This document shows, one piece after another, positions 1,115 to 64,000 of a stretch of 64,000 bases of DNA. The notes beneath the pieces were generated by a model. The model ran no database searches and was not told the origin of the DNA. It worked only from the letters and a program-made list of their open reading frames with translations. Position 1 is the first letter of the stretch. The number at the start of each line of letters is the position of its first letter. Position numbers and translations under genes: made by a program. The stretch lies in the NCBI GenBank assembly GCA_964291285.2, contig OZ219785.1, positions 512,001 through 576,000 of the forward strand, given 5' to 3'. The stretch comes from Alphaproteobacteria bacterium (lineage in GTDB: Bacteria > Pseudomonadota > Alphaproteobacteria > Bin95).

Positions 1115-1303
1115 GCTCTCGCTCCCATGCCGTGCCGGCAGCCCTGACATGACCGTGACATCGAGTGGTGCAACCGTCTGCCTTTCGGGAAAGAATGCAC
1201 CCCGAGGGGGAGGAACGGAACCCCCCAGGGCGAATTAATTGTCTGCCTTTGGGCCATGTTGAGGTGGGGTCCGGGGTGGCTATTTTTTTCTTGATATGGC
1301 AGT

Positions 1304-3100
1304 GTGCCGGTCATGGCGAGGTTTCTGTTTGCGGGTGTTTGGGTTGATCTTCGCGCGGTCACGGTGCGCCCGACCTGGGGGGCACGGGAGCACCGGCGCT
1401 GGGACGATTTGGTAGCGGCGCACCACTATCTGCGGTTCCACGGCATCATCGGCAAGGGTCTGCGCCATGTCGCGGTTCATGGCGAGGCCTGGCTTGCCCT
1501 GGTTGGCTGGCAGCCTGGAGCGTTCAAGGTGGGAGCGCGGGACCGCTGGATCGGGTGGTCGGCGGAGCAGCAGTTCCGTCGCCTGCATCTGGTTGCCAAC
1601 AACTCGCGCTTTGTCATCCTGACGCCTGAGCGGGTTCCCAACCTTGCCTCGCGGGTGCTGGGGCTGAGCGTGCGGCGGCTGTCGCAGGACCTGCGGGCGG
1701 CGCATGGCTATCCGGCTGTTGTGGCGGAGACGTTTGTGGACGTCTCGCGCTTCGCCGGCACCTGCTACCGCGCGGCCAACTGGCGCTCTTTGGGTCTGAC
1801 GCGCGGCTTTGCCCGCGAGCCCGGAGGGGTGGCGCGCTGGCGTCACCACGGCCAGCCCAAGGAGGTCTTCGTGTTCGAACTGACACACGGCGCCCCCGAG
1901 GCGCTGAGCCATCCCGAGATACCGGCAGACTGGAACGCTGAGCAGCACACCGAGCCGATGGCGGCGCCCCGGCTGCGCAGCCTGTTCGAGTGTTTGGGCG
2001 AGGTGCCCGAATACCGCCATGCCCGGGGCAAGCGCTATGCGCTCACCACCATTCTGACGCTGGCCGTTGCCGCCCGGCTTGCCGGATACCGGGGTGTGAA
2101 CGCCTTCGCCCAGTTCGCCGCCCTGCTCTCCCAGAAGCAACTCAAGGCGGTGGGCGCCTTCTGGAGCCCATCCAGGCAGTGCTACACGCCGCCGGCGGTC
2201 ACCACCTTCCACAACATCCTCGCCGCCCTGCCGCCACAGACCCTGGACAATGCCATCGGCCAGTGGGCCGGACAGCACAGCAGTGCGCACGCGCCTGTGG
2301 CCATGGACGGAAAGGATTTGCGCGGTGCCTCGAAGCAGAGCGAAGACCGGCGCAGGAGGATGGTCGCTGCGGTGGCGCATGACACCGGCGTGGTCCTCGG
2401 GCAGGTCGAAGTCAGCTCCAAAAGCAACGAAATCCCGGCCGTGCGCGAACTCTCCAGCGGTCTCGACCTCACAGGCCGGATCGTCACCATCGATGCGATG
2501 CACGCCCAGCACGAGACCGCGCGTTGCCTGCTCGAACGCCGTGCCGACTACGTGGTCAGCGCGGTGAAGGGCAACCAGCAGACCATCCTCGAAGACCTCA
2601 AGGCGATCGACTTCAGCGATGCGCCCTGGCACGAAACCGTCGACAAGGGCCATGGTCGCATTGAGCGCCGACGCTGCGCCGTCGTCGACCTCTGCGCTGC
2701 CGAGTGGGACGGCTACGCCCACCTTCACGGGCGCCGCCAGGCAATGCGCATGGAACGCGAGCGCAAGATGCTCAAAACCGGCAAGCGCAGCATCGAGGTC
2801 ACCTGGAGCCTGACGTCGCTTGGCGCAGAGCGAGCCGGCCCCAAGGAGCTTCTCGATCTGGTGCGCAACCACTGGCACATTGAGAACCGTGTGCACTATG
2901 TGCGTGACTTCACCTATGACGAAGACCGTTGCCGGGCATATGTGCGCCACCTGCCCGGAAATCTGGCCTGCTTGAGCAACGCGGCCATCGCTATCGTGCG
3001 CTGCGACGGACGCTTCCGATATGTACCCGAGGCCAACCGGCACTACGCCGCCCGCGCCCAAGAGGCCCTCGACGCGATTATGATCGCGCCCAGAGGCTGA
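1304..3100 (+). CDS. ISAs1-family transposase with N-terminal DUF4338 (DruA/Mom-like) domain
   Basis: C-terminal ISAs1 motifs MDGK, KSNEIP, IDAMH, VKGNQ, GHGRIE, HWHIEN. N-terminal HHYL, NNSRF, NLASRVL, ETFVD..F.GTCYRAANW are typical of DUF4338. The start could instead be ATG 1313. Confidence 0.9.
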   Translation: MPVMARFLFAGVWVDLRAVTVRPTWGAREHRRWDDLVAAHHYLRFHGIIGKGLRHVAVHGEAWLALVGWQPGAFKVGARDRWIGWSAEQQFRRLHLVANNSRFVILTPERVPNLASRVLGLSVRRLSQDLRAAHGYPAVVAETFVDVSRFAGTCYRAANWRSLGLTRGFAREPGGVARWRHHGQPKEVFVFELTHGAPEALSHPEIPADWNAEQHTEPMAAPRLRSLFECLGEVPEYRHARGKRYALTTILTLAVAARLAGYRGVNAFAQFAALLSQKQLKAVGAFWSPSRQCYTPPAVTTFHNILAALPPQTLDNAIGQWAGQHSSAHAPVAMDGKDLRGASKQSEDRRRRMVAAVAHDTGVVLGQVEVSSKSNEIPAVRELSSGLDLTGRIVTIDAMHAQHETARCLLERRADYVVSAVKGNQQTILEDLKAIDFSDAPWHETVDKGHGRIERRRCAVVDLCAAEWDGYAHLHGRRQAMRMERERKMLKTGKRSIEVTWSLTSLGAERAGPKELLDLVRNHWHIENRVHYVRDFTYDEDRCRAYVRHLPGNLACLSNAAIAIVRCDGRFRYVPEANRHYAARAQEALDAIMIAPRG

Positions 3101-3237
3101 TACCCCACCCCCCACCGCAATACAGGCTCGGGCCGAAGAACGGCGCAGCAAAACAACTGCGCCCGTCGAGGACGAAAACACTGGACCGCGGCATCAAGAA
3201 ACCACCATGACGGCGGCCAGAAACGTCTGGGGTTCCC

Positions 3238-3653
3238 CAAAACCTTCATTGTCGGGCGGGTCGGCCACCCCGTATCATGAAAACAGGTGCCGGCCGCGCG
3301 GGCGGGACTTCGGGCTTTTACGGGGTTGCCTACCGGTCAGGGTCCGCAAGACGGGCGCCGCAGATGGCGAGTATCGGACGCCTCGGGAGCAGTGCTTTGG
3401 CGGGGAGGTTTTTTTTGCGCCCGATCCCCAACAATTTTCACGGCAAAACCTTCATTGTCGGGCGGGTCGGCCACCCCGTATCATGAAAACAGGTGCCGGC
3501 CGCGCGGGCGGGACTTCGGGCTTTTACGGGGTTGCCTACCGGTCAGGGTCCGCAAGACGGGCGCCGCAGATGGCGAGTATCGGACGCCTCGGGAGCAGTG
3601 CTTTGGCGGGGAGGTTTTTTTTGCGCCCGATCCCCAACAATTTTCACGGCAAA
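3238..3653. repeat. Tandem dimer of a 206-bp non-coding mini-element inside ISAs1 copy 1
   Basis: Units 3238-3443 and 3444-3649 (CAAAACCTTCATTG...TTTTCACGG) are followed by CAAA. A solo copy lies at 57245-57450. Confidence 0.95.
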
Positions 3654-3743
3654 CACCGGCAGCCAGACCGACATCACTCAGACAAAGCCCGCGGTTCGAC
3701 TAAAAATTTTCCCTGGCGGCAGGGGCTTGCGCGAAGAATTTTG

Positions 3744-3770
3744 TTTAGCTAAATAGAGTGGACTAAATAG
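3744..3770. promoter_or_regulatory. Probable autoregulatory operator of the toxin-antitoxin pair
   Basis: Palindrome TTTAGCTAAA (3744-3753) and repeated CTAAATAG immediately upstream of the antitoxin start. Confidence 0.5.
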
Positions 3771-3785
3771 CGGGAAGGCTGTTCC

Positions 3786-4025
3786 ATGCTCACCGTCAAC
3801 ATGCACGAAGCCAAGACGCATCTGTCGCGCCTCGTCAAGGCCGCCGCTGAAGGCGAACCCTTCATCATTGCGCGCGCGGGCAAGCCGGTGGTCAAGGTCG
3901 TCGCTCTGGACGCGCCGGAACCGGGCTCCCGGATCGGGTTCATGGCCGGTGAGATATCCGTGCCCGACGACTTCGACAGCATGGGCGCCAGCGAGATCGA
4001 GTCCATGTTCCAGGACGATGCGTGA
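3786..4025 (+). CDS. Phd/YefM-family antitoxin
   Basis: VNMHEAKTHLSRLV..A..GEPFIIARAGKPV signature; GTGA overlap with the downstream toxin. Confidence 0.92.
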   Translation: MLTVNMHEAKTHLSRLVKAAAEGEPFIIARAGKPVVKVVALDAPEPGSRIGFMAGEISVPDDFDSMGASEIESMFQDDA

Positions 4026-4408
4026 AATATCTTCTAGATACGCATCTGCTCCTCTGGGCGGCAACCGGGTCGGCGCGGTTGCCGGCGGAGGCGCGCAGGA
4101 TTATCGATCTCCCGGAGACCGAACCGGCCGTCAGCGCCGCTTCGCTCTGGGAAATAGCGATAAAAAGCGGGCTGGGGCGAACCGATTTCCACATCGATCT
4201 GCGCTTGCTTCGGCGCAGGTTGTCGGTTCACGGCTACACCGAATTGCGGGTAACCGGAGCCCATGCGGCGGAGATATGTCTTTTGCCGCCGATTCATCGC
4301 GATCCCTTCGACCGCATGCTGGTTGCGCAAGCCCGGGTTGAAGGTATCACGCTCCTGACGGCCGACAGCATCGTCGCGCGCTATCCGGGTCCCATCCGCG
4401 CGCTATGA
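4022..4408 (+). CDS. vapC: VapC PIN-domain toxin
   Basis: LLDTHLLLW, SAASLWEIAIK, HRDPFDRMLVAQA motifs. Confidence 0.92.
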   Translation: MKYLLDTHLLLWAATGSARLPAEARRIIDLPETEPAVSAASLWEIAIKSGLGRTDFHIDLRLLRRRLSVHGYTELRVTGAHAAEICLLPPIHRDPFDRMLVAQARVEGITLLTADSIVARYPGPIRAL

Positions 4409-35496: not shown

Positions 35497-35595
35497 ACTG
35501 GCGGGCGCGGAGGCAGCCAGGGCGAATTAATTGTCTGCCTTTGGGCCATGTTGAGGTGGGGTCCGGGGTGGCTATTTTTTTCTTGATATGGCAGT

Positions 35596-37392
35596 GTGCC
35601 GGTCATGGCGAGGTTTCTGTTTGCGGGTGTTTGGGTTGATCTTCGCGCGGTCACGGTGCGCCCGACCTGGGGGGCACGGGAGCACCGGCGCTGGGACGAT
35701 TTGGTAGCGGCGCACCACTATCTGCGGTTCCACGGCATCATCGGCAAGGGTCTGCGCCATGTCGCGGTTCATGGCGAGGCCTGGCTTGCCCTGGTTGGCT
35801 GGCAGCCTGGAGCGTTCAAGGTGGGAGCGCGGGACCGCTGGATCGGGTGGTCGGCGGAGCAGCAGTTCCGTCGCCTGCATCTGGTTGCCAACAACTCGCG
35901 CTTTGTCATCCTGACGCCTGAGCGGGTTCCCAACCTTGCCTCGCGGGTGCTGGGGCTGAGCGTGCGGCGGCTGTCGCAGGACCTGCGGGCGGCGCATGGC
36001 TATCCGGCTGTTGTGGCGGAGACGTTTGTGGACGTCTCGCGCTTCGCCGGCACCTGCTACCGCGCGGCCAACTGGCGCTCTTTGGGTCTGACGCGCGGCT
36101 TTGCCCGCGAGCCCGGAGGGGTGGCGCGCTGGCGTCACCACGGCCAGCCCAAGGAGGTCTTCGTGTTCGAACTGACACACGGCGCCCCCGAGGCGCTGAG
36201 CCATCCCGAGATACCGGCAGACTGGAACGCTGAGCAGCACACCGAGCCGATGGCGGCGCCCCGGCTGCGCAGCCTGTTCGAGTGTTTGGGCGAGGTGCCC
36301 GAATACCGCCATGCCCGGGGCAAGCGCTATGCGCTCACCACCATTCTGACGCTGGCCGTTGCCGCCCGGCTTGCCGGATACCGGGGTGTGAACGCCTTCG
36401 CCCAGTTCGCCGCCCTGCTCTCCCAGAAGCAACTCAAGGCGGTGGGCGCCTTCTGGAGCCCATCCAGGCAGTGCTACACGCCGCCGGCGGTCACCACCTT
36501 CCACAACATCCTCGCCGCCCTGCCGCCACAGACCCTGGACAATGCCATCGGCCAGTGGGCCGGACAGCACAGCAGTGCGCACGCGCCTGTGGCCATGGAC
36601 GGAAAGGATTTGCGCGGTGCCTCGAAGCAGAGCGAAGACCGGCGCAGGAGGATGGTCGCTGCGGTGGCGCATGACACCGGCGTGGTCCTCGGGCAGGTCG
36701 AAGTCAGCTCCAAAAGCAACGAAATCCCGGCCGTGCGCGAACTCTCCAGCGGTCTCGACCTCACAGGCCGGATCGTCACCATCGATGCGATGCACGCCCA
36801 GCACGAGACCGCGCGTTGCCTGCTCGAACGCCGTGCCGACTACGTGGTCAGCGCGGTGAAGGGCAACCAGCAGACCATCCTCGAAGACCTCAAGGCGATC
36901 GACTTCAGCGATGCGCCCTGGCACGAAACCGTCGACAAGGGCCATGGTCGCATTGAGCGCCGACGCTGCGCCGTCGTCGACCTCTGCGCTGCCGAGTGGG
37001 ACGGCTACGCCCACCTTCACGGGCGCCGCCAGGCAATGCGCATGGAACGCGAGCGCAAGATGCTCAAAACCGGCAAGCGCAGCATCGAGGTCACCTGGAG
37101 CCTGACGTCGCTTGGCGCAGAGCGAGCCGGCCCCAAGGAGCTTCTCGATCTGGTGCGCAACCACTGGCACATTGAGAACCGTGTGCACTATGTGCGTGAC
37201 TTCACCTATGACGAAGACCGTTGCCGGGCATATGTGCGCCACCTGCCCGGAAATCTGGCCTGCTTGAGCAACGCGGCCATCGCTATCGTGCGCTGCGACG
37301 GACGCTTCCGATATGTACCCGAGGCCAACCGGCACTACGCCGCCCGCGCCCAAGAGGCCCTCGACGCGATTATGATCGCGCCCAGAGGCTGA
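35596..37392 (+). CDS. ISAs1-family transposase with N-terminal DUF4338 domain
   Basis: Translation identical to 1304-3100. Confidence 0.9.
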   Translation: MPVMARFLFAGVWVDLRAVTVRPTWGAREHRRWDDLVAAHHYLRFHGIIGKGLRHVAVHGEAWLALVGWQPGAFKVGARDRWIGWSAEQQFRRLHLVANNSRFVILTPERVPNLASRVLGLSVRRLSQDLRAAHGYPAVVAETFVDVSRFAGTCYRAANWRSLGLTRGFAREPGGVARWRHHGQPKEVFVFELTHGAPEALSHPEIPADWNAEQHTEPMAAPRLRSLFECLGEVPEYRHARGKRYALTTILTLAVAARLAGYRGVNAFAQFAALLSQKQLKAVGAFWSPSRQCYTPPAVTTFHNILAALPPQTLDNAIGQWAGQHSSAHAPVAMDGKDLRGASKQSEDRRRRMVAAVAHDTGVVLGQVEVSSKSNEIPAVRELSSGLDLTGRIVTIDAMHAQHETARCLLERRADYVVSAVKGNQQTILEDLKAIDFSDAPWHETVDKGHGRIERRRCAVVDLCAAEWDGYAHLHGRRQAMRMERERKMLKTGKRSIEVTWSLTSLGAERAGPKELLDLVRNHWHIENRVHYVRDFTYDEDRCRAYVRHLPGNLACLSNAAIAIVRCDGRFRYVPEANRHYAARAQEALDAIMIAPRG

Positions 37393-37529
37393 TACCCCAC
37401 CCCCCACCGCAATACAGGCTCGGGCCGAAGAACGGCGCAGCAAAACAACTGCGCCCGTCGAGGACGAAAACACTGGACCGCGGCATCAAGAAACCACCAT
37501 GACGGCGGCCAGAAACGTCTGGGGTTCCC

Positions 37530-37945
37530 CAAAACCTTCATTGTCGGGCGGGTCGGCCACCCCGTATCATGAAAACAGGTGCCGGCCGCGCGGGCGGGAC
37601 TTCGGGCTTTTACGGGGTTGCCTACCGGTCAGGGTCCGCAAGACGGGCGCCGCAGATGGCGAGTATCGGACGCCTCGGGAGCAGTGCTTTGGCGGGGAGG
37701 TTTTTTTTGCGCCCGATCCCCAACAATTTTCACGGCAAAACCTTCATTGTCGGGCGGGTCGGCCACCCCGTATCATGAAAACAGGTGCCGGCCGCGCGGG
37801 CGGGACTTCGGGCTTTTACGGGGTTGCCTACCGGTCAGGGTCCGCAAGACGGGCGCCGCAGATGGCGAGTATCGGACGCCTCGGGAGCAGTGCTTTGGCG
37901 GGGAGGTTTTTTTTGCGCCCGATCCCCAACAATTTTCACGGCAAA
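37530..37945. repeat. Tandem dimer of the 206-bp mini-element inside ISAs1 copy 2
   Basis: Same sequence as 3238-3653. Confidence 0.95.
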
Positions 37946-38055
37946 CACCGGCAGCCAGACCGACATCACTCAGACAAAGCCCGCGGTTCGACTAAAAATT
38001 TTCCCTGCGGAGGCAGCCCATGTCCTCCAATACCACTGCCATATGCTGTATCTTG

Positions 38056-56416: not shown

Positions 56417-56834
56417 CTGGAAACGGGCGAAAGATGTCGCGCCGACATGCGGAACCGCGAGCAAGGAATGGCGCATCCGGCGGCAAGATCGTAGAACCTC
56501 CGGCAATCATGAACGATATGCGGCGCGGGCGACTCCTCCGATGAGGACGCTCGCAAGGAGCGCCTATGCAGGCAAGGGTTCGACGGCGTGACCTCGGCAC
56601 AGTTTGACGGAGGGGCGTGGATCGAGCGCGTTGTGGAGCTGCTTCCGCCGCTGGCGCAGGCGCAGGAACCCTATCTGCGCGAATTTCAGAAACGGTATGC
56701 GCGCGTGATTGACCTGCGGGACGGCAAACCGCCGCCTTTCCCGCTGGACGATTTGCGCCTGCTCTACGACGAGGTTCGCGACAGCAGGCCCTGGGGTCTG
56801 GAAGCGCACTATGCGCCCTTGCGCGCGGTGCTGG

Positions 56835-56928
56835 ACCCGGTGCACCCGGTGCGTACCCGGTGCGTACCCGGTGCGTACCCGGTGCGTACCCGATGCGTCA
56901 CGCACTGCTGGGTCACGCACTGCTGGGC
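56835..56928. repeat. 11-bp tandem repeat plus 15-bp duplication
   Basis: ACCCGGTGC followed by (ACCCGGTGCGT)x5 with the last unit variant, then CACGCACTGCTGGG[T/C] x2. Confidence 0.92.
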
Positions 56929-57244
56929 CATCCGACGCTCGAACGGGTCGCGGTAACGGACCGCTTGATCGGCGACAATCGATTCTCGATGGAGATTCCC
57001 GGTTCCGGCGGGGATATCCACGCGGGGACATTGATTGCCGGGCTGATGGCGAGGGCTGCGGAGCTGCCGGATGCGGGTTCCGGACGGCTGTGCGCGAGCT
57101 GGGCGCATTTCTCTCGCCCCTCGGAGACGGGGTGGCGGCCGATGCGCTCGGCAGTCTCGACGAGGCTTGCGACATGTTCCTGTTCTATGGTCTTGCGTTG
57201 TCCGAGAGGATTGTGATGACGGACGGCATGGTGTTGCTGCCGTA

Positions 57245-57450
57245 CAAAACCTTCATTGCCGGGCGGGTCGGCCACCCCGTATCATGAAAACAGGTGCCGG
57301 CCGCGCGGGCGGGACTTCGGGCTTTTACGGGGTTGCCTACCGGTCACGGTCCGCAAGACGGGCGCCGCAGATGGCGAATATCGGACGCCTCGGGAGCAGT
57401 GCTTTGGCGGGGAGGGGTTTTGTGCGCCCGATCCCCAACAATTTTCACGG
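57245..57450. mobile_element. Solo copy of the 205/206-bp non-autonomous mini-element
   Basis: Same length as the units in ISAs1 with about 6 substitutions; interrupts the HEPN gene between LLPY and (Q)EVLRF. Confidence 0.88.
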
Positions 57451-58394
57451 CAAGAAGTGCTGCGGTTCGCGGACGAGGACCTGGTTAGGGAGTTTGCGCC
57501 GTCAGGCGCGGGATTCCACGGCTGGCGGGCGGTGGGAGCGGTGGCCCGGCCGTTCCGATGGCGGCCCGAATTCCGCCGAAGGGCCAGATTGAACGGGCCA
57601 GTGGGACCGCCGTCACCGCCGTTTTTCCCGGAGGCGGCGGTATTTCTGGACTTGCTGGCGGTGAGTCACGCGACGCGCGTTACGCCGCTCGCAGCATTGT
57701 CGAACCGCATCGACGGTTCGGCCGGGCGACTGCTGGGCCGGGAGAAGCAGAGTCCTGGCATTTACCGGAGCTGCCCGGCAGAGGGCTTCAGCGGATTCGA
57801 CGAATGCCCGGCGATGGACCAGGAGGCGCTGGCGGAAGCGCTGGAGGCTTTTCGCAACCGGGAGAACCCTTGCTACGAGAGGATGGCGCCGATCGTTACG
57901 CGGTTGTCGGAGGCGCTCGCGAGGAACGGGCGGTTCGCGGTCGCTGACAGGGTTCAGGATGTCGCGATGGCGCTTGAGCGAATGTATGTGCTGGATGAGC
58001 CCAACATCGGACGCAAGTTACGCAACCGCACGGCGCGGTTTCTGGGAACCGATGCGGCTAGCGAGAAGGGAATCCGCGAGAACGTAAGGGAACTCTACGC
58101 CGTGCGATCGGACATCGTTCACAACCGGTTGCACAGGCTGACGCCGGAGAGAGTCCAATCGGCGTTCGTCCGGGGCTTCGACATCGCACGGCAGTCGCTG
58201 TTCAAGCTGCTGCGCACGGGGCCGCCGGAGGACTGGGCTGCGTCAAGGGGCAACGGGAGCCAGGGGACCAGCACGAAGCGGGCAATCCAGGAGCGACAAA
58301 GCGGGACCCGGGCACCTGAAGGGTAGGCTTCCCGGTATCTCTTGGTACGAAATGACCATTGGTTCGTGGGCCGAAAGTGTGGCCGCGGGTGATG

Positions 58395-60385: not shown

Positions 60386-63300
60386 ATGACGCGGATGCCG
60401 GGCGATGTCGGGATGCATGACCTGCGGCTCTTCGGGCGGAGCGCCTCACGCGCGCGCGAACCCGAACTCGTTGTACCCCCCCCCCCCCTCAAGAGTCAGG
60501 GCGCGGGGCTGAACCGGTGGGCGCCCCCGGGAGAACCGCCCGCCGCCTGAGCGCGGGACTCGCTGCCCTCTTCCTCATCACACTGACCACCGTCTTTGCG
60601 CCGCAGGCTGCGCAGGCGCAGACCCCCGTTCTTACCGCAACAGCGGGGGACGGGCAGGTGACGCTGAACTGGACGTATACCGGCAGCGGGCTAACCGGTT
60701 GGGGGTACAAGATCAATGGCGGTACATATACTTGGGCTGGGACACCCATCGTTATTCCAGCTTCCAACTCCGGCACCAGAAGCCACACGGTAACGGGCCT
60801 GACGAACGGAACCGCTTATCAGTTCATTGTCTACGCGCAGACTGATGCCAATACAGCTTTCCGTCAAAGCAACCAGGTGAGCGCCACACCGCAGGTGCCG
60901 GCCCCGACGCTGGTCTCCGGACCGGACAGCACCATCAGGACCGCCGAGACGACGACGCAGGTGTGCTACAACCTGCTTTCGGTCTCGCAGGGTGCGACCA
61001 CGTACCTGGAGGCGCGTCAGGGCAAGACGGCCGTGACCGCGCATTCGGTGCTCTCCGACGCGAGCCTCGGCGTCGAGATCACGCAGGCTCCCGCCGGCAT
61101 CACGAAGGGGCGCGGCGTCAACCTCAGTCCCTGCGTCAATCTGGGCAAGGGCACACATACCGTCACCTGGAGCTGGAGGGGCCAGGACGGCACCGCCACG
61201 GCGGGCACGACCTCCACCACCGTCACCATCACCGACCCCGCGCCCGCACAGGCGAAGCCGGCGCTTACGGCAACCGCGGGTGTCGGCAGTGTCACACTCA
61301 CCTGGACTCGTACCGGCAACACTGGATTTGGATATTGGGTTTACCGACAGGGGGTCACCGGAGGAGGTTACGGCGACTGGATCGATATACCGGGCGGCGC
61401 CACCATCAGAGCCCACACGGTCACAGGGTTGAACGCCGGCACCTCCTATACCTTCCAGGTGGCAAGGGCGGAAGGTGCCGGTCTTAACTTTTCCGTCTTC
61501 GCTAGTGGGGGAGGGTACTCGAACGCGGCCACGGCGACGCCAACGGCGGCCACGACCACGACGCCCGCCGCGCCGACGGGTCTGACGGCGACGCCCGGCG
61601 GCCCCGCGCAGGTGTTGCTGACGTGGACCAAGCCGGCCGGCACGATCACCGGCTACAAGCTGCGCTACGCCAAGACGCCGTCAAAGGCCAGCGCCACGTG
61701 GGGTACCATGACGGGTTCGGGCGCGAACACCGTGAGGCACATGGTGACGGGTCTGGACAACGCCGCCGAATACAGTTTCATGATCCGTGCGGTGAACGCC
61801 TCCGGCGACGGCGCCGCCACGGGCTGGGTGACGGCGACGCCTGCGGACAGCTGCCCTGGCGTGGGAGCACCGACGAACCTGAGCCTTGCGCCGCGTTCGG
61901 ACGGGTTTGCCGTCACCTGGAATGCACCGACCGATATCTTACGCAACGGCTGGGAATTGTCTTACAAGAAGACCGGGGGAAGTTCGAGCTCTGTCACCAT
62001 CTCGGATGCCGCCGCGACCAGCCACACGCTGACCGGCCTGGACGCCGGCACCGAATACGAGATCGCTCTTCAAGCGACGCATCCTGTCAATCCCGATCCT
62101 ACTGCGTCATGCCCTCCAGGCTCCCGCGCAAAAGCCACCGGCACGACCCTCGCGGCCGCGATGCCGACCATCACCCTCACCGCCGCGACGGGGGACGGGC
62201 AGGTGACGTTGTCCTGGACCTATACCAACGACGATGGGGAGGCGTTTGATCACTGGCGGTACGCGCAGAAGAAAGGCAGCGGAAGCTACAGCTTTGGCGT
62301 GGAGATTCCCGGCGGCAAGACCGTCCGAACGCACACCGTGACAGGTCTGGAAAACGGCGCCGCATACACTTTCAAGGTCTCACGCGGAGTTACGAGTCCT
62401 CCACCTGCGATGATCCAGTCAACAGCAGATCCTGACTCCAACGAAGTCACCGCCACACCCACGGCGGCCCCCACCGTCGCCGTCCCCGCGGCGCCGACGG
62501 GGTTGTCGGCGGAGGCGGGCAACCGTCAGGTGAAGCTGACGTGGACCGATCCGGACGACGATTCGATCACGAGGTATCGGGTGCAGCAGAGGAAGGGCAG
62601 CGCCGCCTGGGGCAGCTGGACCGCGATTTCCGGTTCGGACGCGGACACCACGACCCACACGGTGACGGGTCTGGACAACGACAGCGAGTACCGCTTCCGC
62701 ATCCGGGCGCGGAACAGCGGCGGCAACGGCGCCGCGTCGGCGGTGGTGGAGGCGACGCCGTCGGCGTCGGCGGCGGTTCCCAAGCCGGTGCTGAGCGCCG
62801 AACCGGGTTACGCCAGGGTCACCCTGAGCTGGAGCGCCTTGTCGGGTGTGACGGTTGCGAGCTGGGGTTATCAGTACAAGCCCGCGGGCGGCAGCTGGAT
62901 CAGGACCCGGACGGTCACCGGCGGCAGCACGACGAGCGCCACGGTGACGGGTCTGACGATCGGGACGGAATACACGTTCCGGCTGTTCGCCGCGGTCGGT
63001 CCCGGTGTGCAGTCGGTGTGGTCGGACCAGGTGAAGGCGACGCCGACGAACAAGGTTCCCAAGCCGGTCCTGACGGCGGCAGGAGGCGATGCCTCGGTCA
63101 CCCTGAGCTGGAGCGGCCTGTCGGGCATTCCGATAACGAGCTGGGGCTACCAGTACAAGAGCACGGGGGGCTGGAACACGACCACGACGGTCACGGGCAG
63201 AAGCAGGACGAGCGTCCGGGTGACGGGGCTGACGAAGGGGACGGACTACACGTTCCGCCTGTTTGCCGCGGTCAGTCCCGGGGTGCAGTCGGTGTGGTCG

Positions 63301-64000
63301 GACGAGGTGACGGCGAAGACCGATCCGGCGGCCCCGGTGCTGACGGCGGCGACCTCGACGACGAACGGGCAGATCGACCTGACCTGGACCCATGCCGGCG
63401 GCTCGAACGAGTTGTCGGATGCGGACGACTATGTGAAAGACGCGGCCAAGTTCCATTGGTGGAGAGCGCAGACCCGGCTGAAGGGCGAAACCGCCTGGAC
63501 GGATCGCAGTCTCAACCAGGCCAGTGCCAGACAGAACCCGGGCTCTCGCAGCAATCGGCTTCTGCTGAACTATCCTGACGGGGCATCGGTCGAGGTCCGG
63601 GTTCGGGCAACGGGCTATCGCATGGCGGGTGTCGCCGGGGGAACGGGCAACCTTCAGGGTCCCTGGTCGAACATCCGTACGGTGACCTTCAAGGACGACA
63701 CCACGGCGGCGCTCACGCTGACCGGGACGCCGGTGACGGTGGCGCCCGGTTCCACGGCGACCTACACGGTGGCGCTGACGAAGGCGTATGCGGGGACGCT
63801 GCGGATCACGAGCGACACCACGGCGGCGGCGCGGGTAAGTCCGGCGAGCCTGACCTTCACGACCGCCAACTACAACACGGCGCGGACGGTGACGGTGACC
63901 GGTGTGGCGAACGGCACGGCGGTGATCAACCACGCCTTCCGGCTGACGGGGGCTTCTGCGGATGCGATCCCGGATGCGGGCACGGTGGACGTGACGGTGG
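60386..64000 (+). CDS. Large secreted fibronectin type III repeat protein; frameshifted at the C tract and running off the window
   Basis: A frame open from 60421 to the window end encodes signal peptide RRLSAGLAALFLITLTTVFAPQAAQA and about 9 FN3 repeats (LTATAGDGQVTL.W...HTVTGL.NG..Y.F) plus Ig-like spacers. An in-frame GTG at 60517 is an alternative start. Confidence 0.85.
60476..60488. repeat. C13 homopolymer in the 5' region of the FN3 gene
   Basis: 13 consecutive C lie between RBS-linked ATG 60386 and the signal-peptide frame. Confidence 0.9.

Follow-up and report, generated by a model that had tools for sequence, protein, structure and literature searches.

IS110-family recombinases are under development as programmable genome-writing tools, and the natural parasites of these enzymes, together with the rules they follow, are informative for genome writing. 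IS110 elements of the IS621/ISEc21 type, guided by bridge RNAs, are said to have been described by Durrant et al. in 2024.

In the accessible text of two reports, the guides of IS621 and ISEc21 lie upstream of the transposase gene (PMC13626964, PMC11187229), and the IS1111 group is distinguished by a guide RNA downstream of that gene, a transposase of 330-350 aa and sub-terminal inverted repeats (PMC11187229). MITEPpu9/ssr9, associated with ISPpu9 in Pseudomonas putida KT2440, forms its own circles through the ISPpu9 transposase, according to the available part of the article that describes it (PMC12288879). Two further sources, as far as their accessible portions go, describe IS110 elements as having no target immunity, accumulating tandem units and recombining at half matches (10.64898/2026.08.14.744561; 10.64898/2026.08.31.748434).

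The window, as the term is used here, is the whole stretch of 64,000 nt that was analysed. It contains copies of a mini-element that is, with a probability of about 0.85, a gene-less, MITE-like deletion derivative of an IS110-family insertion sequence (IS) and that needs both the recombinase and the bridge RNA in trans.

Copies and insertion sites of the mini-element

The positions of the features in the window are collected in Table 1. TRF gave a period of 206 with 2.0 copies and 100% matches at 3238-3653 and at 37530-37945, and the repeat search placed five in-register copies in the window, with starts at 3238, 3444, 37530 and 37736 (100%) and at 57245 (97%, 6 differences in 206 against the dimer unit). 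The first-pass annotation, which had reported two dimers and one solo copy with imperfect sub-terminal inverted repeats, was correct on both points. The boundaries of dimer 1 can slide by up to 3 nt within the A runs at 3239-3242, 3445-3448 and 3651-3653. The left-end module contains the right-donor half ACCTTCATTG and the sub-terminal repeat CATGAAAACAGG, which is complementary to ATTTTCA of the right end; the core and right end close with ...CACGGC, which is the left-donor half, and then comes the AA core. Two frames, of 181 and 138 aa, are open through the dimer, and 206 is not divisible by 3. The annotation had seen no credible ORF in the element, a statement that agrees with the absence of a Pfam match in either frame but passes over the two frames themselves.

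Table 1. Positions of the mini-element copies, their parts and their surroundings in the window.
Feature	Position	Strand	Remarks
Carrier IS	1226..3720	+	ISAs1-like DDE transposase at 1304-3100; mini-element dimer ~70 nt from right end
Dimer 1 of mini-element	3242..3652	+	411 nt; units 3242-3447 and 3448-3652; from TRF, repeat search, empty carrier copies and run X3 contig
Left-end module	3242..3290	+	homologous to parent IS left end (LE), 1 to ~50; local alignment
Core and right end	3291..3446	+	homologous to parent IS ~165-nt region from transposase stop to right end
Carrier IS, second copy	~35517-38013		
Dimer 2 of mini-element	37534..37944	+	identical to dimer 1; in second carrier IS copy
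Interrupted gene	56709..58326	+	upstream part 56709-57248; downstream part 57454-58326
Solo mini-element	57249..57453	+	205 nt; 6 differences from dimer unit; in conserved gene

When the mini-element was compared by blastn with genome G000 (6.13 Mb, 5 contigs, 100% complete), 39 HSPs were obtained, spread over all 5 contigs, and 17 of these lie inside one carrier IS. A script counted 14 distinct left flanks, which became 13 sites after duplicated contexts had been collapsed; several of the further G000 copies are truncated or interrupted by other insertions. All copies that reach the right end close with ...CACGGCAA (longer form ...ATTTTCACGGCAA), and the same precise ends recur at the 13 sites, where ragged ends had been named beforehand as the mark of passive fragments. 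On the left side, a variable flank is followed by a run of 2-4 A and then by C(C/G)T(T/C)CATTG; the base following CAA at the junctions is A, C or G. Distinct sites were also found in G010 (5), G001 (4), G061 and G062, and blastn in distant mode against the plasmid collection gave no match.

Copies of the carrier IS without a mini-element read GGGGTTCCCCAAAACACCGG, and filled copies read ...TTCCCCAAAACCTTC... and ...CACGGCAAACACCGG..., so that the empty site has grown by a net 205 nt where it holds the monomer and by 411 nt where it holds the dimer, without duplication. Donor and target have 2-4 A in common. One contig of the public run X3 connects 3239 to 3651 and skips 411 nt, which is the empty form; the aligned contigs are too short to span the dimer. 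With the target written as LT-AA-RT and the donor as ...CACGGC-AA-AC..., an AA core accommodates all junctions, save for one extra A at the dimer joints of G000. The CAA that the first-pass annotation had noted at every junction is reread here as this AA core, which in the donor follows ...GGC and in the target mostly ...CC(A); what it had called a 1-nt spacer at the dimer joint is the extra A in the A run, and the dimers of other genomes do not have it.

The solo copy evidently sits in a real gene. With its 205 nt removed, the window reads ...DGMVLLPYK/EVLRFADED... (a slash marks a junction here and below), and the uninterrupted orthologue in G010, a 639-aa ORF with 75% identity, reads LLPYGEVLRF (longer, ...DGMVLLPYGEVLRFVDQE...). 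Comparison with this orthologue confirmed that removal of 205 bp, not 206, restores the host frame, and together with the empty carrier copies it upheld the earlier claim of insertion without target duplication. No family was matched by Pfam or PADLOC with either gene half or with the intact orthologue, and the label HEPN that the split gene had been given earlier found no counterpart in these searches.

The carrier IS (2.1-2.5 kb) is present in 12 genome copies, eight with the dimer, one with a monomer and three empty. Its transposase carries DDE_Tnp_1_assoc and DDE_Tnp_1 domains behind a DruA-like N-terminus (Pfam), and we take the DDE_Tnp_1_assoc/DDE_Tnp_1 architecture to be typical of ISAs1. 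In this protein of 598 aa, the DruA-like N-terminal region (PF14236, E 2e-19) is fused to the ISAs1-type core; a plainer relative of 371 aa at L057:2717-3829 is without that region. A single mini-element dimer would have landed near the end of the ISAs1-like IS, and multiplication of the IS would then have produced the eight dimer-bearing copies. An ORF just right of the carrier IS, at 3786-4064 of the window, starts with MLTVNMHEAKTHLSRLVKAAAEGEPFIIARAGKPVVKV and presumably resembles a Phd/YefM-type antitoxin. Elsewhere in the window, the segment 60618-63316 holds direct, diverged repeats of 64-300 nt, among them a tandem with a 276-nt period at 62817-63316 (83% matches), which are probably repeated domains of a large surface protein.

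At L162-L189 in G063, a relative of the mini-element with 79% identity was found just inside the right end of another, unrelated IS, which to all appearance is a second case of a mini-element riding in the tail of an IS. This host IS gave at least 40 matches, and all copies that could be delimited (9 of the loci scanned) share the same flanks. Co-amplification of IS and mini-element was rejected as an account of G063, since identical flanks inside another IS count as one insertion.

Several G000 mini-elements share one flank but not the other (C1:795049, C4:462047, C2:383187, C1:54855, C5:303453 and C3:1518130, in the combinations A-X, A-Y and B-X), and right flank Y is found at four loci; the pattern points to rearrangement through recombination among the copies or to repeated insertions in other repeats. 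Mini-elements interrupted by insertions were found at G000 C3:1837580-1843460 (~5.7 kb) and C3:1518127-1520019 (~1.7 kb) and at G062 C1:2666362-2666772 (~0.2 kb), and the 9-13-nt query overlaps at these places look like target duplications of the incoming elements. The pair at C3:1837580...1843460 was considered as an autonomous parent and rejected, being a mini-element split by the 5.7-kb insertion with a 9-bp query overlap.

The parent IS110-family element and its guide segments

An orphan-end motif scan of G000 returned one LE-like end, CAA/AACCTTCATGGTC, at C2:1199944, and four RE-like (right-end-like) ...CTGTTTCACGGCAA ends. The IS fragment at C2:1199944 begins with CAA/AACCTTCATGGTC...GCCGCCCCGTTTGATGAAACAGG and leads into a DEDD_Tnp_IS110 ORF. 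Its LE-like end lies ~330 nt upstream of the DEDD transposase, the sole one in G000 that is unlike that of a 13-copy 1133-bp IS. In two of the RE-like ends, the fragments C4:270938 and C5:3175, ...CTGTTTCACGGCAA follows the C-terminus of a Transposase_20 domain. Searching for related loci with the parent transposase gave 78 loci with 61-97% identity, most of them full length.

The parent IS measures ~1769 bp and has a left non-coding region of ~350 nt, of which the mini-element has lost ~300 nt, and a right non-coding region of ~165 nt; its transposase, of 416-428 aa, carries PF01548 and PF02371 (Pfam). The right ends were aligned for 9 mini-elements and 11 IS right-end regions, and pairwise alignment was also used. 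In these alignments the mini-element consists of the parent LE (1 to ~50) joined to the right-end non-coding region and right terminus (~160 nt). The score of the local alignment between mini-element and IS LE was reached by 1 of 200 shuffles for L093 and by 3 of 200 for L087. The parent IS has a sub-terminal repeat between LE 38-48 and RE -16..-6. Short repeats, TGAAACA(G/C)G, are present at both deletion breakpoints and suggest how the deletion may have arisen.

The first-pass annotation had left the element unclassified, had named both IS110/IS1111 and IS91 elements for comparison and had proposed a search for a longer element with the same ends that encodes an enzyme. The intact ~1769-bp IS in relatives is such an element. 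The mini-element takes its left end and its right-end non-coding region from an IS110-family (DEDD) IS, which answers the question of class, favours the IS110/IS1111 suggestion over that of IS91 and replaces the "unknown enzyme" of the annotation with a DEDD recombinase of 416-428 aa. The core of the earlier proposal, a mobile, non-autonomous element that is moved in trans and hitch-hikes in another IS, is supported, mobilisation in trans being the part that we infer. Compared with the IS1111 group, the parent IS has its guides upstream of the transposase gene and a longer protein, along with a short sub-terminal repeat.

A tblastn search of G000 found no intact cognate transposase, only C-terminal pieces and a 300-aa N-terminal portion that an ISAs1-type IS interrupts. 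Because of this result, movement of the mini-element in G000 would be historical or would need another helper. With one query, no close cognate IS was found in the mini-bearing genomes G010, G008 and G012, the best match having 30% identity in G010 and G008 giving none. Two candidate mobilisers, the G010 IS110 with 30% identity and the 13-copy 1133-bp IS110-family IS of G000, were rejected as their ends are unrelated to those of the mini-element. The 1133-bp IS is located at G000 C1:248259-249391 and in 12 further identical copies, none in the window. Its left non-coding region of ~80 nt has GCGGACG, matching the usual left flank ...CGGAC(A/G)C; it lies mostly in REP-like sequences, ...GCGCGAG..CGGACAC/GTCGGCT, and in 3-4 copies the first 50-80 nt are different.

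The left non-coding regions of 13 parent IS copies were aligned. A variable segment resembling a left-target guide (LTG) was located between conserved ...CCCGA and AAAC-TGC, with ~10 different variable parts among the 13 copies (examples are CGCCAAAAC, ATCTAAAC, ATATAAAC, CACCAAAC, ACGCAAAC, TTGAGAAAC, GTCTAAAC and CGCTAAAC). In 12 of the 13 it has an exact common suffix of 7-9 nt with the left junction of its own copy, and the 13th matches at 8 of 9 positions. A second segment, GTGGACG-nGC(G/A)GCAAA, resembles a left-donor guide (LDG) and has 7-8 nt in common with the right end in 12 of 12 copies; CGGCAA, CAGCAA and GCAGCAA covary between this segment and the right end. Both segments are left-hand guides; their right-hand counterparts (RTG, RDG) were not found. 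L127 and L129, from the same MAG, are nearly the same IS, with CACC and ACGC, respectively, as the 4-nt variable guide part and flanks that differ accordingly; the pair would show how a guide is naturally reprogrammed from one copy to another within a single genome. The left non-coding region of the parent IS is predicted from this covariation to encode a bridge RNA, in which the two segments behave like left-target and left-donor guides. The 13 copies together form a series of naturally reprogrammed guides in a clade whose core is AA and whose target is very short.

The mini-element is without the left non-coding region that holds these guides, and no segments that match its own target or donor and covary with them were found in its core. 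It would therefore need both the recombinase and the bridge RNA in trans, and a gene-less element without located guide segments can still be dispersed.

A logo built from 31 independent insertion sites of the L093-type IS reads S-S-G-A-C-A-A/A, with almost no information on the right. The guide of this IS type is TGACAAAAC, and that of the G000 and G061 IS is CGCCAAAAC. Left junctions of the mini-element have CC and an A run at 12 of 19 collapsed sites (G000 8/13, G061 2/4, G062 2/2) and AC and an A run at 5 of 19, against 0 of 31 and 27 of 31, respectively, for the L093-type IS. The difference in CC flanks is significant by Fisher's test (p = 4e-7), with the reservation that sites in related genomes are not fully independent. 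This flank bias appears to fit the guide of the local IS type. Seven of the 19 left flanks fall outside the CC rule, and the mini-elements of G010, G008 and G012 are at CATGAC-A-run sites. CATGACA motifs stand to the left of the mini-elements at L006, L011, L014, L017 and L020 (G010) and at L008 and L009; in G010 they stand to the right as well, and they recur nearby. They may be a repeated target sequence.

Proposed mobilisation, the conserved core and rival explanations

We infer the following order of events, circle formation and mobilisation in trans included. The cognate DEDD recombinase and its bridge RNA would recognise the ends of the mini-element through the donor-binding guide, in which CGGCAAA matches ...CACGGC-AA-A. 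The mini-element would be excised as a 205-nt circle with the junction ...CACGGC-AA-ACCTTC..., that is ...CACGGCAAACCTTC..., and this circle would recombine, through the AA core, with a target in which the 4-5-nt variable guide segment sets the left half (CGCCA-AA-AC for the G000 IS type), with an outcome free of target duplication. The left junction formed in this way would retain LT-AA-AC, the left half of the target with the core and AC, a sequence that matches the guide in full. Being still a target, it would therefore allow re-insertion to build head-to-tail arrays of mini-element with mini-element, IS with mini-element and IS with IS, so that a preserved left half-site can account for tandem arrays.

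Arrays of all three kinds were observed: L038/L160 is a heterodimer of two mini-element subtypes, in L074 an IS right end is directly followed by a mini-element, and IS-IS tandems are found at L102, L103, L109, L110, L116 and L120. The tandem joint is the sequence expected of a circle junction. In the model the array joint is the circle junction and would have three A, which is consistent with what is seen at the joints of L038, L040, L074 and the IS-IS tandems. The two dimers of G000, with their 206-nt period, have a fourth A there: the model predicts 4 A plus 2 x 3 A, or 10, and 11 are observed. The extra A would be explained by slippage of the register within the A run or by a donor variant of 206 nt.

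The best-conserved part of 22 aligned mini-elements is the core, which is homologous to the right non-coding region of the IS; the whole IS clade keeps this region, which is conserved across parent IS with 61-97% transposase identity. A promoter-like TTGTCG-18-TATCAT lies in the LE of the mini-element at 3249-3278 (promoter scan, 2 found vs 0.1 expected), with TATnnT invariant in the 22 mini-elements and the equivalent IS sequence a poorer match to the consensus. A T run at 3409-3416 follows ~130 nt downstream of the promoter-like site. It is conceivable, if rather unlikely, that the core is expressed from this promoter as a small RNA of ~130 nt and serves as a second RNA component or regulator of bridge recombination, the mini-element then being a parasitic RNA gene. 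If this were true, the core RNA might, for instance, act by competing for the recombinase or by modulating the bridge RNA, and the mini-element, as an RNA gene, would spread parasitically on an RNA-guided recombinase and outlive dead IS.

The core may have an RNA role, in line with the structured RNA that the first-pass annotation had named as a possibility. The comparison with Rfam, which the first-pass annotation had named as a check for a structured RNA, produced no family at gathering score in the window or in three IS loci, and permissive filters on 3100-3800 gave only chance hits with E>=1. Single-strand folding of both strands was no more stable than that of shuffles (MFE z-score +0.86). 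RNAalifold on the 22 mini-elements gave a covariation term of ~0, and seven IS right-end regions gave a different structure. In a five-helix model, 24 proposed pairs were 95% paired vs 31-47% in slid controls, with covariation equal to that of shuffles (226/500). Nothing above shuffles was found when the right-end and left non-coding regions were compared for similarity or complementarity. A 19-nt antisense match between the mini-element and the guide region of the L087 IS was dropped, as it was reached by 17 of 200 shuffles and is not conserved in other mini-elements.

The conservation of the core, in the mini-elements and across the IS clade alike, and the promoter-like site in the LE that points into it would also suit a mini-element that guides itself, its core encoding its own bridge or seek RNA as in IS1111-type elements with only the protein supplied in trans. 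The accessible text of PMC11187229 lends this some precedent in the downstream guide RNA of IS1111-type elements and in 26 of >350 IS110-family IS that have two long non-coding regions. We nevertheless consider it very improbable. The segments that covary with target and right end sit in the left non-coding region of the parent, which is missing from the mini-element; the G000 subtypes have CCTTC vs CGTCC left ends, yet their cores are nearly identical; and k-mer matches of the right-end region to targets or donors are sporadic, with no covariation. The transposase has 416-428 aa, and in the same partial source the long non-coding region of IS110-type elements is generally upstream (PMC11187229).

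A reading of the copies as passive debris, in which duplication and recombination would have scattered fragments of the IS or of the carrier IS, would explain why 17 of the 39 hits are within one carrier IS, why flanks recur (C1:569245 = C4:24068; C2:760252 = C3:405222 = C5:316270) and why the sampled G063 relatives are all within one other IS. It is very improbable in view of the 13 distinct G000 sites with the same precise ends, the further sites in G010, G001, G061 and G062, the precise empty sites that are known and the heterodimers of two subtypes, which cannot come from duplication. Absence of target duplication, sub-terminal rather than terminal structures, a fixed short junction sequence and tandem copies are features that an IS200/IS605 PATE with omega RNA, or an IS91-type rolling-circle element inserting next to CAA(G), would have in common with the mini-element. 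These origins are scarcely credible here: the end similarity is inverted, not direct, both termini are those of a DEDD IS, and the base after CAA varies. Neither Y1_Tnp (PF01797) nor TnpB (PF07282) was found in the 100%-complete G000, where positive controls worked; the Y2_Tnp profile search gave no match, but its control likewise matched nowhere. The reading as a deletion derivative of an IS110-family IS, mobilised in trans, explains, for the annotation of G000, the 39 repeat hits, the interruption of one gene and the unusual build of the carrier IS.

Comparison with described IS110 systems

The parent IS resembles IS621/ISEc21, as far as these are described in the accessible parts of PMC13626964 and PMC11187229, in a recombinase with DEDD and Tnp domains, the absence of target duplication and a core dinucleotide at both boundaries. 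The position of the guide RNA upstream of the transposase gene is the same, as is the make-up of its segments (left target plus core, left donor plus core). Going by those parts of the reports, it is unlike them in having an AA core in place of CT, a specificity that lies almost only in the left of the target, an extra conserved right-end non-coding region of ~165 nt and a sub-terminal repeat; the mini-element, for its part, is without a recombinase and without guide segments located here.

The closest precedent is MITEPpu9/ssr9 of ISPpu9, and the mini-element is of the same kind in a different IS110 clade. Both are gene-less modules with near-copies of the end boxes of an IS; both are found immediately downstream of the IS, as single units at other places and in tandem; and both recombine, or in our case are proposed to recombine, at a dinucleotide common to element and target, so far as the available text on MITEPpu9 extends (PMC12288879). 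That text interprets MITEPpu9 as a selfish hitch-hiker dependent on the IS transposase, and the mini-element would be alike (PMC12288879). The clades are different, with 416-428 aa and an AA core in the IS of the mini-element and an AG core in ISPpu9, and so are the targets, a short left half for the mini-element and REP sequences for MITEPpu9. The mini-element is homologous to the right-end non-coding region of its IS, whereas for ssr9 the excerpts describe complementarity to a 5' UTR antisense RNA. Both circles and RNA were demonstrated for ssr9; the mini-element is known from its sequence. Compared with what is reported there for MITEPpu9, the mini-element is found at many more independent sites and is still present in genomes that have no intact IS. 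Two unrelated IS carry it (in G000 and in G063), one copy interrupts a gene, and it survives where the IS is broken.

With the tandem IS110 loci, as the accessible portions of two sources present them (10.64898/2026.08.14.744561; 10.64898/2026.08.31.748434), the locus has in common head-to-tail arrays of non-coding units and of whole modules. Growth in those loci takes place beside the transposase, whereas the mini-element is dispersed through the genome, inside unrelated IS and within a gene.
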